DNA of 64,000 nucleotides. Origin: Paracoccaceae bacterium. GTDB lineage: Bacteria > Pseudomonadota > Alphaproteobacteria > Rhodobacterales > Rhodobacteraceae. The stretch is from contig JAHYIZ010000001.1 of NCBI GenBank assembly GCA_019429405.1, positions 44,035 through 108,034 of the forward strand. Direction: 5' to 3'. Position numbers and translations under genes: made by a program. The notes beneath the pieces are model-generated. The model did no database searches. It saw only the letters and a program-made list of their open reading frames with translations, and was not told the origin of the DNA. Positions 55,016 through 60,848 of the stretch are shown piece after piece (the stretch's first letter is position 1; every line of letters starts with the position of its first letter).

Positions 55016-55155
55016 AGGCTAGCGCCGCCGCCCGCCCCCCGCAACCGAAAGCGGTGGCGCGAGAACGCGGATTTCGGTAGCTTTTCGAGCGACGGCTCTG
55101 GAAACACGCGGTTGCGCACACCAGATTGTGAAGGTCTTTAACATTGGAGGCAGGG

Positions 55156-56232
55156 ATGCCGAGTTTTGAGGCGCAGATCGAGGAAAGCCAGAAGCAGGTG
55201 GCCGAAACCCAGGCCCGCATGGCCGCGCTGACGTCGCGGATCGAGTCGGCGCGGGTGAAAGCCGAGGCCGGGCAGGACATTACTCTGGATATCGAAAACG
55301 CGACGCTGGCCGATGTGCAGGCGCATGCCGACCTGATGAACGCCAACATCGCCGAGCTGATCATGGGGCTAGACGATGTGACCGCGGGCTTTTCGCGCGA
55401 TTTCGACCAGATGCGCTCCAAGACCGGCTGGGAAAGCTTTGTTGGTGTGTTCGCGCGCGGCAAATCCGAAGCGATGCGGCAGGAACGCCTGCGCAGCGCC
55501 AGTATTGACGCCAAGCTGCAAGACCTGATCGGCAAGTCAGACGTGATCGTGCGGCTGCTGGAAGGCCAACTTGCCGAGTTGAACACGCAAAAGGCGCGCG
55601 TCGAAAGCAACCTGACCGATACGCTGGCTGACCGCGAGGCGACTGTGGCCGCGCTCGAAGGTGTGCGCGCCGAGATCGCGGCGCTTGACCCCAAGATCAT
55701 TGAGCTTGAAAACCGCATCGCGGTCGAACAAGACGCGGCAGCCCGCACCCGGCTGGAAACGGAACTGGCCGATTTGAACGTGCGTCACAACGCGTTGGTG
55801 CAGGACGAACAGGTGAAACTGGCCAAAAGCCAGACGCTGGAACGCTACATCGAAAAGGGCAAGACCTGGGTGGACAGTCTGCAAAATCAGGCCGCCACGC
55901 AGATGGTGCTGATCAACAAGCTGCAGACCGACACCAAGCAGCGGGTCGTGCTTTACGACGCGCTGACCAAAAGCTTGAAGACCGCGCAGCAGCAGGACGT
56001 GGCGCACCGCATCAACGAAATCGGCGTGCAGACCGATCAAGAGGCGCAGACCGCAATGGCGGGCATTGGTGCGGCCACCAACCAGCGCATGGCCGAAATG
56101 CTGGAAGCCCACGAGGGGCATATGGTTTTCGCCCGCAAGGTGCTGGAACAAAAGGCCAAGGCCGACGAACGCTTTGCCCGTCGCTTTGCCGCGATTGTCG
56201 AGAAACACGACAAGAACCTCTATGGCGGCTGA
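55156..56232 (+). CDS. coiled-coil protein, possibly TelA/YaaN-like (system gene A)
   Basis: GGAGG at 55146-55150, then the ATG at 55156. 358 aa, all-helical with heptad-rich sequence and no TM helix. The TelA-like call is low-confidence and from memory. Confidence 0.7.
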   Translation: MPSFEAQIEESQKQVAETQARMAALTSRIESARVKAEAGQDITLDIENATLADVQAHADLMNANIAELIMGLDDVTAGFSRDFDQMRSKTGWESFVGVFARGKSEAMRQERLRSASIDAKLQDLIGKSDVIVRLLEGQLAELNTQKARVESNLTDTLADREATVAALEGVRAEIAALDPKIIELENRIAVEQDAAARTRLETELADLNVRHNALVQDEQVKLAKSQTLERYIEKGKTWVDSLQNQAATQMVLINKLQTDTKQRVVLYDALTKSLKTAQQQDVAHRINEIGVQTDQEAQTAMAGIGAATNQRMAEMLEAHEGHMVFARKVLEQKAKADERFARRFAAIVEKHDKNLYGG

Positions 56233-57352
56233 ACTGGACCTGACCCGCGACCACAAGCGGCTGGAGGATGACCTTGCCGCGCGGCGCTATTTTGCCAAGT
56301 TTGACCGCATCACCCGACTACTGGTCGCTGTCGCGGGCGCGATGGAGGCCGACCGCACGCTGAGCCGCCTCGATACCGGCGTGCTTTCGGGCTATGTGAA
56401 CGCGATTGCCGCCAGCTTTCGCGCGCTGTCGCTCAAATACCTGATTTCGGGCCGGATCGGCGGGTTGCTGGCAAAGCATCTGACCATTGATCTGCATGAA
56501 AGCGGCTTTCCGATCTATCAGGAGCTGGCGACCATGGCCAACGATGCCGCGCAGGCCACGCAGCATCTGCGCGGCATGGCCGAGGCCGAGGCGCTGAAAG
56601 ACGAGATGCTGCGCGAGATCCTCGGCCAGCGCGCGCTGCCGACCAAACTGCAATATGCCCTGAGTCAACGGCTCTATTACGAGGCTTTGGGCAAAGGCGG
56701 CCTGTTCTGGCCGCAGATGCACCCTTCGGCGCAATGGCTGGCCGACCTTCCCAAGGGGCGGCGCAGCTATTTGCTGCACTGGGCGGTTTATGACAGCCAG
56801 TTGAACGTGCCTGTGGTCTATTTGCTGGAGGCCGAAGACAGCGGCCGCAAGGCGCTGCCGCTTGATCAGGGGCGCTGGCCGCAGGTGCAGGCGCATCTGC
56901 TGGCACAATCGGTGGGCGGGTTGAAGCTGGTCACGATTGCCAAGGGGCTGGATGCCGATTTCGACAACCTGCACCCCAAACGGCTGCGCCGCATCCACCT
57001 CGGCCCGATGTATTCGAGCGCCTACACATTGCAAACCGGACCGATCCGCGAAGTGCTGGAAGACGCCCGCGCCCCCGAGGGTGAGGATTGGGCCTTGGCC
57101 TGGGCGCTGGAGGAGCTGGAAAGCGAGCGCGTCGAGGTGGATAAGGGCTGGTTTTTGGAGAGTGAGCGGCAGGTGTTCCGGCTCGACCCCTTTGGCGGGC
57201 GCGGGGTCGATCTGGGGGCAACCCGGCTTGCGCGCTCGATCATCCTGCCACAGCGCCCGTTTCAGGTGTTGGCCGAAAAAGACCCCGAGGGATTTCGTGA
57301 TGTGCGCAAATTCGTGGTCGGGCGCGAGGGGCGGGTGCTGGTTTACGGTTAG
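56222..57352 (+). CDS. hypothetical protein (system gene B)
   Basis: Its ATG lies inside the last codons of gene A (ATGGCGGCTGA, 11-nt overlap). 376 aa with sensible composition and no motif recognised. Confidence 0.65.
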   Translation: MAAELDLTRDHKRLEDDLAARRYFAKFDRITRLLVAVAGAMEADRTLSRLDTGVLSGYVNAIAASFRALSLKYLISGRIGGLLAKHLTIDLHESGFPIYQELATMANDAAQATQHLRGMAEAEALKDEMLREILGQRALPTKLQYALSQRLYYEALGKGGLFWPQMHPSAQWLADLPKGRRSYLLHWAVYDSQLNVPVVYLLEAEDSGRKALPLDQGRWPQVQAHLLAQSVGGLKLVTIAKGLDADFDNLHPKRLRRIHLGPMYSSAYTLQTGPIREVLEDARAPEGEDWALAWALEELESERVEVDKGWFLESERQVFRLDPFGGRGVDLGATRLARSIILPQRPFQVLAEKDPEGFRDVRKFVVGREGRVLVYG

Positions 57353-57410
57353 GCCGGGGCAAAGCCGGGGGTTTTCCACCCCCGGACCCCCGGAGGGTAT
57401 TTGGACAAAG
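57353..57410 (+). repeat. GC-rich dispersed intergenic repeat, copy 5 (inside the operon)
   Basis: GGCCGGGGCAAAGCCGGGGGTTTTCCACCCCCGGACCCCCGGAGGGTATTTGGAC. It contains a CCGGGGG/CCCCCGG hairpin at 57365-57385. Confidence 0.6.
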
Positions 57411-57427: not shown

Positions 57428-59362
57428 ATGAGCCTTCCGCGCGACGAGATGGAATTGAAGGAAGAGGCGATCCGGGCGCATTACGCCGCCGCCGGCGCCT
57501 TGCTGGCGGGGTTCGACCATGCCCCGAGGCTGGCGCGCGCGGTGGCGGTAGAAACGGTGGCAGAACGCTCGCCCGGCATCGGTGCGCGGCCAAGGTTTCG
57601 GTCAACCACGCCGGGGCTGGTGACCCGCTCGGTGGCGCGCCCCGAAGGGGTGCGGTTGGCCGCGCGGGTGCTGGCGGTGGGGGGCGACGATCTGCCGGGA
57701 CCCTTGCGCGCATCGGTGGTGCAGGCCTTGCGCCGGGCGCTGGCGATCGCGCTGGCGGTAGGCGAGGAATTTGCCACCGCGACCGGTCTTGCCGAGTTGA
57801 AGAAAGCCAATTTGGAAGCGCGGCTGCCGGGGCAGCGAGCGGCCGAGTTTGGCGAGTTGCTGGCCGCCGAGGCGCTGGCGGTGCTGTCTGTCTTTGCCAA
57901 TGCCACAGCGTTTCTTCTGGCACCGCAGGCGGGCGAGGTGACGGTCGAGGTAGGGGCGGTTGAGGAAGTGCTGACCGACAATGCCCCCCTCGCGTTGCAT
58001 GGCGTGTTGTGGGAGTTGGATCAGGATATCGCCGCATTCGCCAGTGACGAGGCGCGGCTGGTGGCCGCTGTTCTGGCCTATGCCGAGCAGTTGATGGAGA
58101 AGGTGCGGCTGCGCGCCGAGGCGGCGCCGCGGCTGGGGGCCTTTACCGGCGCCAACTGGCGGGTGGCTGCGGACGATTTTCCGATTGCGGGCTTTGCCCC
58201 GGCGCGCAAGGCCAAAGGCACCGTGCTGACCATGGCGTTCAAGAAGCCCAATGAGGTGGTCGGCAACCACATCGCCAAATATCAGGCGATGCGGTTGGCG
58301 AAGATGCTGATGGCTTATGATTTTGAACGCCGGATGAACCCGTTTGCCGAGATGGGCGGCTTCATCTTCACCTTCATGGGGGATGGCAAGCCCGGTACCG
58401 GCAAGACCACGCTCATTCAGATGATGGCGGGGCTGCTGAATGAGTATTGCACGGTCGCGGGCTACCCGTTCCGCTACCAGAACCTTTCCATCGACAATGT
58501 CGACAGCTATCAGGGCAAGTCGGGGCAAAACGCCAAGGCTTTCATCACATCCGTCATGGACCCTGCGGTGATCGGCTTCGGCACCGTGGATGACATCGAC
58601 CAGGTTGCGGGTAAGCGTGGCGACCGCCAGTCAAGCACCGGGCAGCAGGAAATTACCGCGGTGCTGATGGAGGCTTTTGCCGGGGCAAACACCGTGGTGC
58701 GCGGCAACTGCACCTTTGGCATGTTCTCGAACTACCCCGAGAACGTCGATGACGCGCTGCGCCAGCGCGCAGGGGCGCGGTTTCTGGTCGACGGGCCGCA
58801 GAGCCGCGAGGATTACATTGATATTCTGGCGCTGCTGTTGGGGCGCAACCACACGATCCCGCTGGGCGATCACGACCTTTACGCCGCGCAGGAAATCCGC
58901 CGCGCGGTGGCCGAAAGCTTTGAGCGCCACGGGCGGCCGCAAGAGGCGGGCTTGGTGGCGGTCTGGCAGGCGGTGGAAGGGCGGCTGGGGCGGCTTGATA
59001 CGCTGGCCAAGCTCGGGGCGTATCTGAAGGCCATTCAGGAGGCCGACCCGAGATTCACCGGCCGCGCGATCAAGAACATCACCGATGCCGTCAAGGTACG
59101 GGCGATGGATTTTGAACTGCCCGATGAATGGATGGAAAGCCCCGAGTTGTTCCTGTTCCGCGACTATGACGCCAAGCGCGCGATGATCGCCGACCTGCGC
59201 CGCCCGATCACGGTCGAGATGGTGGTGCAGGAGATCAACCGCTACGCCGACAGCGAGTTCCGCTATGCCGACAAGTCGGACGAGGCGGCGATTGAGGGTG
59301 CGGTGCGGGATATGCGGCGGATGGAAGAGGCGAAGAAAAGGTATCTGGAGGGGCGGGGGTGA
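57428..59362 (+). CDS. AAA+ ATPase (classical clade) with about 290-aa unique N-terminal domain (system gene C)
   Basis: AGAGG lies 5 nt before the ATG. Walker A GKPGTGKT (58385-58408), Walker B GFGTVDD (about 58574-58594), and a sensor-1/second region of homology MFSNYPENVDDALRQRAGARF. Confidence 0.85.
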   Translation: MSLPRDEMELKEEAIRAHYAAAGALLAGFDHAPRLARAVAVETVAERSPGIGARPRFRSTTPGLVTRSVARPEGVRLAARVLAVGGDDLPGPLRASVVQALRRALAIALAVGEEFATATGLAELKKANLEARLPGQRAAEFGELLAAEALAVLSVFANATAFLLAPQAGEVTVEVGAVEEVLTDNAPLALHGVLWELDQDIAAFASDEARLVAAVLAYAEQLMEKVRLRAEAAPRLGAFTGANWRVAADDFPIAGFAPARKAKGTVLTMAFKKPNEVVGNHIAKYQAMRLAKMLMAYDFERRMNPFAEMGGFIFTFMGDGKPGTGKTTLIQMMAGLLNEYCTVAGYPFRYQNLSIDNVDSYQGKSGQNAKAFITSVMDPAVIGFGTVDDIDQVAGKRGDRQSSTGQQEITAVLMEAFAGANTVVRGNCTFGMFSNYPENVDDALRQRAGARFLVDGPQSREDYIDILALLLGRNHTIPLGDHDLYAAQEIRRAVAESFERHGRPQEAGLVAVWQAVEGRLGRLDTLAKLGAYLKAIQEADPRFTGRAIKNITDAVKVRAMDFELPDEWMESPELFLFRDYDAKRAMIADLRRPITVEMVVQEINRYADSEFRYADKSDEAAIEGAVRDMRRMEEAKKRYLEGRG

Positions 59363-59380
59363 TGGGTCGTGTCGATTTCT

Positions 59381-59431
59381 TGCCCGGCGGCACGCCGGGC
59401 AGCGCCCGCCCCGCCCCCCAGGGCGGGCGCT
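59381..59431 (+). other. two tandem GC hairpins between genes C and D
   Basis: TGCCCGGCG-GCA-CGCCGGGCA (59381-59401) and AGCGCCCGCCC-9 nt-GGGCGGGCGCT (59401-59431). No U-run follows. Confidence 0.6.
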
Positions 59432-59492
59432 TCACGCCCACCCTCGGGCCGGGCGCTGCCCTCATTGCATTGCGGCGACGAGCGGGGAAACC

Positions 59493-60848
59493 ATGAAGCG
59501 GCTGATCGAAAAGGGCCTGATGTATGGCAACCTGATCCGCGTCGACGCCCCGGCGCTGGTGGAACGCTACAACCGCGCGCTAAAGCAGCTTGCCGGGCGC
59601 CAGACCACCCTCACCGAATTCCACATCGACCTTGCGGGGTTCAGCCCCGAGGTGGCGGATGAGCTAGGCGACGCGCTCTACCTCAACCCCAAGGGCTGCA
59701 ACCGGCAGTTCATTCTGCTGACCACCGAGCAGAAGGAAGCGCCGCTGCTGAACGCGCAGTTTTCCAACTGGCGCAGCATCCTGACCCGCTTCATCGAGGC
59801 GAACGAGGCGCAACTGTTCAGCCTGACCGCGCGCGATGCGGTGGCGGGTGAGCTGGAGGATTCCGTCTACGAGGTCGATACCCCCGCCCGGCTTTTCGAT
59901 TTCAACCGCATCACAGTGATCGCCGATACCACCGGCGCGCATGTGGCCGAGGCGGCCAAGCTTGCCACCCTGATTGAGCGGTTCCGGCGTGAGCCCGATG
60001 CCTGGTGGGATGATGTGCTCATCGCGCAAATGATCGGCCTCGCCAAGAAAACCGGCGATGTTACGCGCCAGCCGGTGGTGCTGGGGTCTACCAGTTTCGA
60101 GACGCCCGATTTCTGGACCGCGCATTTCGGCGGGGTTTACCTCTTTCGCTCGGTCGAGCACCCGGCGGCAATCTCGGTCGGGCCGCGCGAGGGCTTGGGT
60201 ACGCTGCCCATTCGCCACGTCTTCGACCTGAGCCAGTGCAACGAGGTGGCGAAGTTTCTCGAAATCAATGGGCTGGCCGAACCCATCGTGCGGGCGCGCG
60301 GCACCGATGCTGGCGCGATCTTGCGGCAGAAGATGGATTTCATTCTGGTCGAGGCGGCGACGCAGTTGGGCCTGACCACCGGCGAGGGCACCACGCGGGC
60401 CGCCTTGCGCGCGGTGGCGCAGACCCTGGGCGCGCGGTTGCCGCAAGAGTTTCAGGGCCTTGCGGCGCTGTTGCGCTGGGTCGAGGCGGGCGGGCCGTGG
60501 CCCAAGCTCGACAGCCGCCATCCGGCCTACTTCTACAGCCTGCGCGCCACGCAGGGGCAAAACCGCGACCTTGTGAACATGCTGCTGGCCGAGCTTGCGC
60601 CGCTTGACGTGCGCCAGCTCTTCATCTGCCACAAAGAGCTTTACTATCGCCTCTACGCCACATGGCCCGAGGCCAAGCGCGCCTATGTGGCCGATTTTCT
60701 CGCCCGCGAATATCAGATAGACAAGGCAGGGGCGCGGGCGCAGCTTTTCGGCCCCGAGCCGGGCATGGCAGATGCGGCGCCCAAACCCGCGCTCGATGTG
60801 GTGGCGCTGGCTGGGCCTTGGGGCGCCGTGGGCAGGAGGCGCAAATGA
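59493..60848 (+). CDS. hypothetical protein (system gene D)
   Basis: ORF 59265..60848 trimmed to MKRLIEKGLMYGN, which avoids a 98-nt overlap with gene C. 451 aa with no motif recognised and no TM helix. Confidence 0.65.
   Translation: MKRLIEKGLMYGNLIRVDAPALVERYNRALKQLAGRQTTLTEFHIDLAGFSPEVADELGDALYLNPKGCNRQFILLTTEQKEAPLLNAQFSNWRSILTRFIEANEAQLFSLTARDAVAGELEDSVYEVDTPARLFDFNRITVIADTTGAHVAEAAKLATLIERFRREPDAWWDDVLIAQMIGLAKKTGDVTRQPVVLGSTSFETPDFWTAHFGGVYLFRSVEHPAAISVGPREGLGTLPIRHVFDLSQCNEVAKFLEINGLAEPIVRARGTDAGAILRQKMDFILVEAATQLGLTTGEGTTRAALRAVAQTLGARLPQEFQGLAALLRWVEAGGPWPKLDSRHPAYFYSLRATQGQNRDLVNMLLAELAPLDVRQLFICHKELYYRLYATWPEAKRAYVADFLAREYQIDKAGARAQLFGPEPGMADAAPKPALDVVALAGPWGAVGRRRK

Follow-up and report, generated by a model that had tools for sequence, protein, structure and literature searches.

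AAA unfoldases are defined by what their N-terminal domains (N-domains) grab. Among the described systems closest to the gene presented here, FtsH and the i-AAA enzyme Yme1 (PDB 5ubv) have transmembrane helices of their own and an M41 protease; enzymes of the meiotic clade (Vps4, katanin, spastin and FIGL1) combine one AAA module with a helical N-domain, the MIT three-helix bundle, and a C-terminal extension, and disassemble polymers; the CbbX/SpoVK/EccA group is bacterial and has a single AAA module, accompanied in EccA by a helical N-domain of about 280 residues; and TRIP13/Pch2 of CBASS has HORMA and CD-NTase partners. The present work concerns gene C, which encodes a 644-residue AAA ATPase, and its neighbours A, B, D, E and F in a window of 64,000 nucleotides of the Paracoccaceae bacterium assembly GCA_019429405.1 (contig JAHYIZ010000001.1, positions 44,035 to 108,034). 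As judged from its sequence, gene C belongs to an AAA family of its own that is under strong constraint and has N- and C-terminal domains peculiar to it; its genetic linkage to three further orphan families is fixed, and membrane proteins usually form part of the linked group. Its interest lies in an N-domain that is predicted to fold with high confidence and has no relative among solved structures, and in an invariant Asp in place of the catalytic Glu of Walker B. Coordinates of the features are listed in Table 1.

Gene C among the described AAA enzymes

The reading frame of gene C is open from a TTG at 57401 to the stop at 59362, and the ATG at 57428 (MSLPRD...) has been taken as the start, since it agrees with the start position in all homologues; an AGAGG Shine-Dalgarno sequence lies 7 nt 5' of it. 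The extent that had been assigned to the gene in a first-pass annotation, made by a model from the letters of the window, is thus right. The window is rich in guanine and cytosine (GC, about 64%), and its genome has no second copy of gene C. Over 4000 relatives are present in the databases, and their names are only "hypothetical protein", "AAA family ATPase" or "DUF6638 family protein". Judged by a conservation that is far above chance, both the reading frame and its family are real. The features of the AAA family linked to DUF6638 are all present, namely a length of about 640 residues, an N-domain followed by an AAA module with a DDID Walker B, a C-terminal PRFTGR...LPDEW block, A-like and B-like genes upstream and a DUF6638 gene downstream.

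In Pfam, PF00004 (AAA) is the sole family above its cut-off; the match covers residues 320-453 and model positions 5-128 of 131, with expectation values (E) of 6e-12 to 2e-12 and 46.6-47.9 bits against a cut-off of 21.2. The sequence relatives of the AAA module in PDB are classical-clade enzymes only and are all weak: Yme1 is the best (5e-6), and the meiotic clade follows at 7e-4 to 1e-2 (FIGL1 7e-4, Vps4 1e-3, katanin 2e-3). A profile of the family finds Yme1 alone in PDB (E=8e-4). These results bear out the first-pass assignment to the classical AAA type and not to the ABC, RecA or STAND ATPases, and by the family models compared below the core is a divergent classical-type AAA module that falls within no characterised family.

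The differences from the described enzymes are as follows. In the alignment with Yme1, Walker A, the pore-loop position, sensor-1 and an R..G.RF-like second region of homology (SRH) line up, whereas gene C has neither transmembrane helices nor the protease, no Peptidase_M41 or FtsH model matches it, and its Walker B pair is DD. In tblastn, the other AAA+ genes of this genome, which presumably include FtsH, come no closer to gene C than E=0.18. With the meiotic clade gene C shares the single AAA module, the helical N-domain and the C-terminal extension, and the coiled-coil product of gene A is the kind of substrate which these enzymes remodel; however, an MIT domain was detected in gene C neither by Pfam (E<=10) nor by Foldseek (best E=1.6, TM<0.25), its N-domain being a 270-residue unit unique to its own family, and no ESCRT-III/PspA or TelA signal was detected in A. 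Resemblance to the CbbX/SpoVK/EccA group is limited by the N-domain, which has no significant Foldseek match to any solved structure, and gene C reaches 14.9, 12.4 and 11.6 bits with CbbX (TIGR02880), SpoVK (TIGR02881) and PAN, for which the cut-offs are 459.25, 422.95 and 500, respectively. None of the FtsH family models registers. With scores so far below the cut-offs, the core does not fall inside the CbbX or FtsH groups, a placement that the first-pass annotation had named as one that would overturn its view. The TRIP13/Pch2 model of CBASS (PADLOC PDLC00915) gives a weak match to the AAA core (E=3e-5), but A, B, D, E and F gave no PADLOC match, and none of them resembles a HORMA or CD-NTase protein in Pfam; overall, PHROGs and PADLOC gave only generic AAA or coiled-coil noise for the cluster.

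The motifs of the module have been compared with those of the PDB relatives. The Walker A pattern GxxGxGK[TS] is matched by the invariant GKPGTGKTT (residues 320-328), with K326 and T327 at the positions of the P-loop Lys and Thr. The longer motif GDGKPGTGKTT had been recognised correctly in the first-pass annotation, while the interval given for it, 58382-58414, was one codon off and reads DGKPGTGKTTL. In the pore-loop equivalent, Y361-Q362-G363 lies on Y-V-G of Yme1; the aromatic residue varies among Y, F, M and L in distant members, and Q362 and G363 are invariant even among members with 24-27% overall identity. The sensor-1 Asn and the SRH-like block, reported before, are likewise present: N435 does not vary, R447 hardly does, and in alignment A4 R451 is invariant as well. 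The residues for nucleotide binding and inter-subunit contact, i.e., the Walker A Lys, the sensor-1 Asn and the two SRH Arg, are all kept. Catalytic and pore residues stay invariant even where identity falls to 24%, which favours a working motor over a decayed domain.

The Walker B motif IGFGTVDD is found where it had been read, at residues 382-389, and departs from the hhhhDE pattern with a catalytic Glu, because gene C has GFGTVDD. Both D388 and D389 are invariant across 28 sequences, and D389 occupies the position of the catalytic Glu. On this alignment the exchange of Asp for Glu, absent from the first-pass annotation, bears on the working of the enzyme, and it suggests a slow or regulated ATP cycle.

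Table 1. Positions of gene C, its motifs and domains, and neighbouring features (window coordinates unless a locus is named; gene C includes the stop)
Feature	Position	Strand	Basis
Gene C, 644-residue AAA ATPase	57428..59362	+	Translation, homologue starts, PF00004
N-domain, residues 1-270	57428..58237	+	AlphaFold2 model; private to the gene C architecture
Basic Ser/Thr-rich motif RPRFRSTTPGLVTRS, residues 54-68, inside loop 41-70	57587..57631	+	Conservation
Walker A / P-loop GDGKPGTGKTT, residues 318-328	58379..58411	+	G323, G325, K326 and T327 invariant
Pore-loop-1 equivalent S-Y-Q-G-K-S-G, residues 360-366	58505..58525	+	Aligns with Yme1 Y-V-G
Walker B IGFGTVDD, residues 382-389	58571..58594	+	Aligned to Yme1 ivfiDElD
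Sensor-1 Asn435 and SRH (Arg447, Arg451), FSNYPENVDDALRQRAGARFLVDGP, residues 433-457	58724..58798	+	FIGL1/Yme1 SRH alignment
Family-specific helical C-terminal domain, residues 521-644	58988..59359	+	Conservation; full-length AlphaFold2 model
C-terminal block PRFTGRAIKNITDAVKVRAMDFELPDEW, almost invariant	59048-59131	+	Conservation
C-terminal block QEINRYADSEFRY, almost invariant	59228-59266	+	Conservation
Operator-like dyad TTGTGAAGGTCTTTAACAT, 30 nt upstream of gene A	55126..55144	.	Consensus ATGTWA-N7-TWACAT
Gene A, at the head of the cluster; soluble coiled-coil protein of 358 residues	55156..56232	+	Upstream of C in every complete locus, 40-80% identity
Gene B, 376-residue soluble protein	56222..57352	+	Start overlaps end of A by 11 nt; conserved in every locus
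Gene D, 451-residue DUF6638 protein	59493..60848	+	PF20343 E=1e-214
Gene E, 90 residues, two predicted transmembrane helices	60845..61117	+	Start overlaps stop of D; hydropathy; follows D in type-I loci
Gene F, 227-residue DUF1523 protein, two predicted transmembrane helices	61121..61804	+	PF07509 E=1e-65; hydropathy; conserved in type-I loci
DUF2333 gene after D	L037:11181-12290, L039:11526-12650, L053:9436-10572, L084:11220-12443		
Dynamin_N GTPase insert	L075:11366-12742 (ENA ERZ23498707 scaffold_511, 26% GC)		

N- and C-terminal domains

The N-domain was modelled with AlphaFold2 (AF2) from an alignment of 29 sequences (26-73% identity), and the model has a mean predicted local distance difference test (pLDDT) score of 82 and a predicted template-modelling score (pTM) of 0.80. 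It comprises a strand and helices, all short, at the N-terminus, a loop predicted to be disordered (residues 41-70), a four-helix bundle (helices 92-119, 135-167, 186-204 and 208-230) and a beta-hairpin (243-254); the same secondary structure was reproduced with high confidence within the model of the full-length protein. The composition (Ala 23%, Leu 12.6%, Val 8.9%, Arg 8.5% and Glu 8.5%) and the model agree with the first-pass description of this half as Ala-rich and helical. Its extent had been put at about 290 residues and should be shortened to about 270, because the AAA module begins at the invariant FKKP..VVGNHIAK block (271-284). The loop predicted to be disordered contains a conserved basic Ser/Thr-rich motif, RRFRSTTPGLVTRS, in which F57 and T60 do not vary in either operon type, although the pLDDT there is below 50.

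It had also been stated that this domain resembles no known adaptor domain, and every search made here agrees; a match to one was the other outcome named as overturning the first-pass view. Pfam gave no match at E<=10, a profile gave 0 matches at E<=10 to PDB sequences, and Foldseek with the model gave best E values of 1.6 in PDB (TM<0.25) and 0.45 in BFVD. An exhaustive phmmer search against 1.8 billion representatives found 180 proteins, of which the full-length ones are all 604-656 residues long and have the same architecture; the N-domain is thus specific to the gene C family. By analogy with other AAA families, it may be the specificity element of the system.

After the lid, for which about 120 further residues had been noted, 124 were counted (521-644). 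They form a C-terminal domain without a match in Pfam or PDB, a profile search against PDB included, and in the full-length model it is helical, with a last helix of about 48 residues (pLDDT 55-88 there). This full-length model was based on 28 sequences and has a mean pLDDT of 65.6, with 27-60 in the AAA part, probably because the alignment is too shallow and its members are too similar. Foldseek with this model gave non-significant matches only.

Identity to gene C of the window across 27 loci is 73-93% for the AAA large subdomain, 53-89% for the C-terminal domain and 26-73% for the N-domain. In the Rhodobacterales-type set, mean p-distances are 0.17, 0.19, 0.25, 0.43, 0.43 and 0.45 for the AAA part of C, the C-terminal domain of C, A, B, D and the N-domain of C, respectively, and so the rate of evolution of the N-domain matches that of B and D.

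The A-B-C-D cluster and its possible role

The order A-B-C-D is fixed in all of the more than 30 loci with enough flanking sequence, from 26% to 65% GC, and C is always the third gene. Carriers include Rhodobacterales, Stappia, Labrys, Caulobacterales, Rhizobium, Mesorhizobium, Sinorhizobium meliloti and Vibrio, and the order is kept on metagenomic contigs of 26-57% GC in which C is only 24-48% identical. By hydropathy, A, B, C and D have no transmembrane segment, apart from one borderline buried helix in C. Neither gene A nor gene B has a match in Pfam or PDB, profile searches included, and the profile of gene D matches nothing in PDB. As a candidate identity for gene A, TelA was rejected at the level of sequence: the TelA model misses gene A, and hhalign of the A family gave probabilities of 4% with a single TelA and 2.7% with an alignment of five TelA sequences. 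The sole aligned piece is a G-W-E-x-F-I-G motif (AGFS..GWESFVG in gene A, RGFS..WWEKLIG in TelA). A bona fide TelA gene is located elsewhere in the genome (C16:28214-29200; L070:1447-2631, minus strand; PF05816 E=1e-106).

The genes after D encode transmembrane proteins in nearly every variant, i.e., E with DUF1523, DUF2333, or other proteins with two transmembrane helices. A DUF2333 membrane protein of about 370 residues takes the place of E and F directly after D in Rhizobiaceae, Mesorhizobium and Sinorhizobium. One scaffold (L075), on which the cluster is a distant version, has a 458-residue Dynamin_N GTPase (E=6.5e-13) with a hydrophobic hairpin, or one strongly hydrophobic segment, between D and the E-like and DUF1523 genes, and a Band_7/SPFH gene lies 3 kb upstream of this cluster. 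In the Vibrio type (L085, CP099927.1, three other Vibrio records, and L079), A-B-C-D is followed by mfd, and DUF3592 genes flank the group; it is found on replicons of about 0.9 Mb of Vibrio parahaemolyticus and V. vulnificus, and its gene C is 45% identical over the C-terminal 70%.

Within the window's family, gene C was found in 134 of 301 genera (Rhodobacterales, about 45% of genera), as a single copy with 68-94% identity, and DUF6638 is present in 138 of these 301 genomes, the two sets differing only in fragmentary assemblies. When the class was sampled evenly, gene C turned up in only one other family, and in a sample of the phylum it was present in 23 of 401 genomes, one of them from another class. 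DUF6638 was found in none of 14 model control genomes and is not mentioned in the literature searched, which may explain why the system has escaped study; mentions of DUF1523 and DUF2333 there are incidental. A function of A-B-C-D would assign roles to at least four conserved families and could bring to light ATP-driven work of a new kind at the inner membrane of bacteria. The linkage of gene C to the three other families is strict and extends over thousands of genomes, with marine Rhodobacterales, the model symbiont S. meliloti and replicons of Vibrio among the carriers.

We consider it about evenly balanced, by analogy with described enzymes, that gene C is a hexameric remodeller or motor of an A-B-C-D module that acts on its operon partners at the inner membrane. 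This reading draws on the behaviour of classical AAA proteins, on the pore-loop equivalent with the intact sensor and arginine fingers, and on the coiled-coil partner. Gene C would assemble into a ring as other classical AAA proteins do, and a probably slow ATP cycle would drive the pulling or remodelling of a partner protein by way of the pore loop. Docking of this partner, most probably a co-inherited protein and foremost the coiled-coil A, would fall to the N-domain, which evolves fast. The work would be carried out on the cytoplasmic side of the inner membrane, and the membrane proteins encoded downstream may anchor or receive the complex there. By analogy, this could be a disassembly cycle like that of Vps4 on ESCRT-III or NSF on SNARE; homology of the partners to ESCRT-III or SNARE systems was not found.

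Several observations weigh against such a motor at the membrane. Because the AAA part of the full-length model is poor, the fold-level placement of the core and the seating of the N-domain on the ring cannot be derived from it. With Asp for Glu in Walker B, the enzyme might hydrolyse ATP poorly or not at all. The partners A, B and D have no recognisable fold in the PDB searches. Mirror-tree comparison of the N-domain with A, B and D gave equal correlations (0.57-0.58), so that no partner is singled out. Finally, the link to dynamin is seen in one lineage only, and clusters of the Vibrio type have no membrane gene directly after D.

A bolder form of the motor reading, which we regard as rather unlikely, is that A-B-C-D is an unrecognised machine for membrane remodelling or membrane repair, a functional analogue of ESCRT-III/Vps4 or of the PspA type built from unrelated parts. 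In that case A, B and D would assemble together at the inner membrane, C would recycle the assembly by means of its N-domain, and one lineage would have recruited the dynamin-like GTPase.

Gene C may instead be a nucleotide-bound switch or scaffold and not a motor, in which the Asp-Asp Walker B would allow ATP binding without useful hydrolysis and gene C would only organise A, B and D. D389 stands in place of the catalytic Glu in every close member, and the D2 ring of NSF offers a precedent for ATP bound without useful hydrolysis. However, pure scaffolds usually lose the sensor-1 Asn, the SRH arginines and the pore loop, and here the Asn, both arginines and the Q-G of the pore loop are invariant. 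An Asp is still able to provide the general base, and the Walker B pair varies in other AAA proteins of the classical type. We hold a scaffold to be unlikely.

The patchy presence of the cluster raises the question of an anti-phage or conflict system, in which B or D would be an effector not recognised as such and the AAA protein its sensor or activator, in the manner of CBASS with TRIP13 or of IetAS-like systems. Presence is uneven even within genera (g354 and g554 are split) as well as over the 134 of 301 genera, and the occurrence in a distant class and on Vibrio replicons suggests horizontal transfer. The spacer between C and D, compared in the window, L022, L024-L026, L034, L038, L040, L041, L043, L045, L052 and L084, ranges from an overlap to 1.6 kb (59363-59492 in the window) and elsewhere has gathered DUF559-type endonuclease, PIN-like, MazF/HicB-like and membrane-protein genes, and ISRm16 in S. 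meliloti Ak57. This pattern suggests a tolerated insertion point inside the cluster. To the match of TRIP13 can be added one of IetA (1.7e-3); both are weak and cover nothing beyond the generic AAA core, and no match was obtained for A, B, D, E or F. Moreover, no nuclease, protease, HORMA, NTase or toxin domain and no phage homologue was found, and the cluster is always single copy. Conservation across the family is housekeeping-like (68-94% for C and 68-80% for A) and equalled by that of a neighbouring housekeeping M20 peptidase, whose synteny with the cluster is kept in several genera; both conservation and distribution are unlike those of defence islands. On balance we judge a role in defence quite improbable, although beside the scaffold it is the other rival to be taken seriously.

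That gene C is a dedicated chaperone which assembles or translocates the membrane proteins encoded downstream (E/F, DUF2333 and others), like Bcs1, Msp1 or EccA and with A, B and D as cofactors, is very doubtful: in most variants membrane-protein genes do come after D, and their frames overlap or nearly touch, but they are non-homologous between variants (DUF1523, DUF2333 and others) and missing beside the Vibrio-type clusters, and CbbX/EccA-type models do not match gene C. Since the membrane partners vary while A-B-C-D is invariant, the constant clients of the putative motor are more likely to be A, B or D.

Upstream region, spacers and the Sinorhizobium locus

The dyad upstream of gene A has the consensus ATGTWA-N7-TWACAT and was seen in the window and among the loci L023-L052. 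Of 17 Rhodobacterales loci, 15 have it at -30 to -74 from gene A with 0-2 mismatches, matches which shuffled sequences almost never attain, and it is missing upstream of gene A in loci outside Rhodobacterales. The lone perfect copy elsewhere in the genome (C50:114954-114972) lies just 5' of a gene for a DUF2852 membrane protein. No CtrA, LexA, EcfG, RpoH, RpoN or sigma-70 motif was found upstream of gene A. The CenR motif is TGA-N8-TGA (PMC9275681), which does not fit the dyad. GC-rich hairpins in the B-C (57353-57400) and C-D (59363-59492) spacers have no T-tract and are no better than those of shuffled sequences (z of -1.4 and -1.8, respectively).

In S. meliloti Ak57 (L084, CP090106.1), the cluster adjoins choVWX and tdk; this record bears the label pSymB, yet its length is 3.72 Mb. 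A ChvI-bound fragment inside SMc02733 has been listed in S. meliloti (PMC3687685). By gene counting from choV only, SMc02733 could be the AAA gene of strain 1021.

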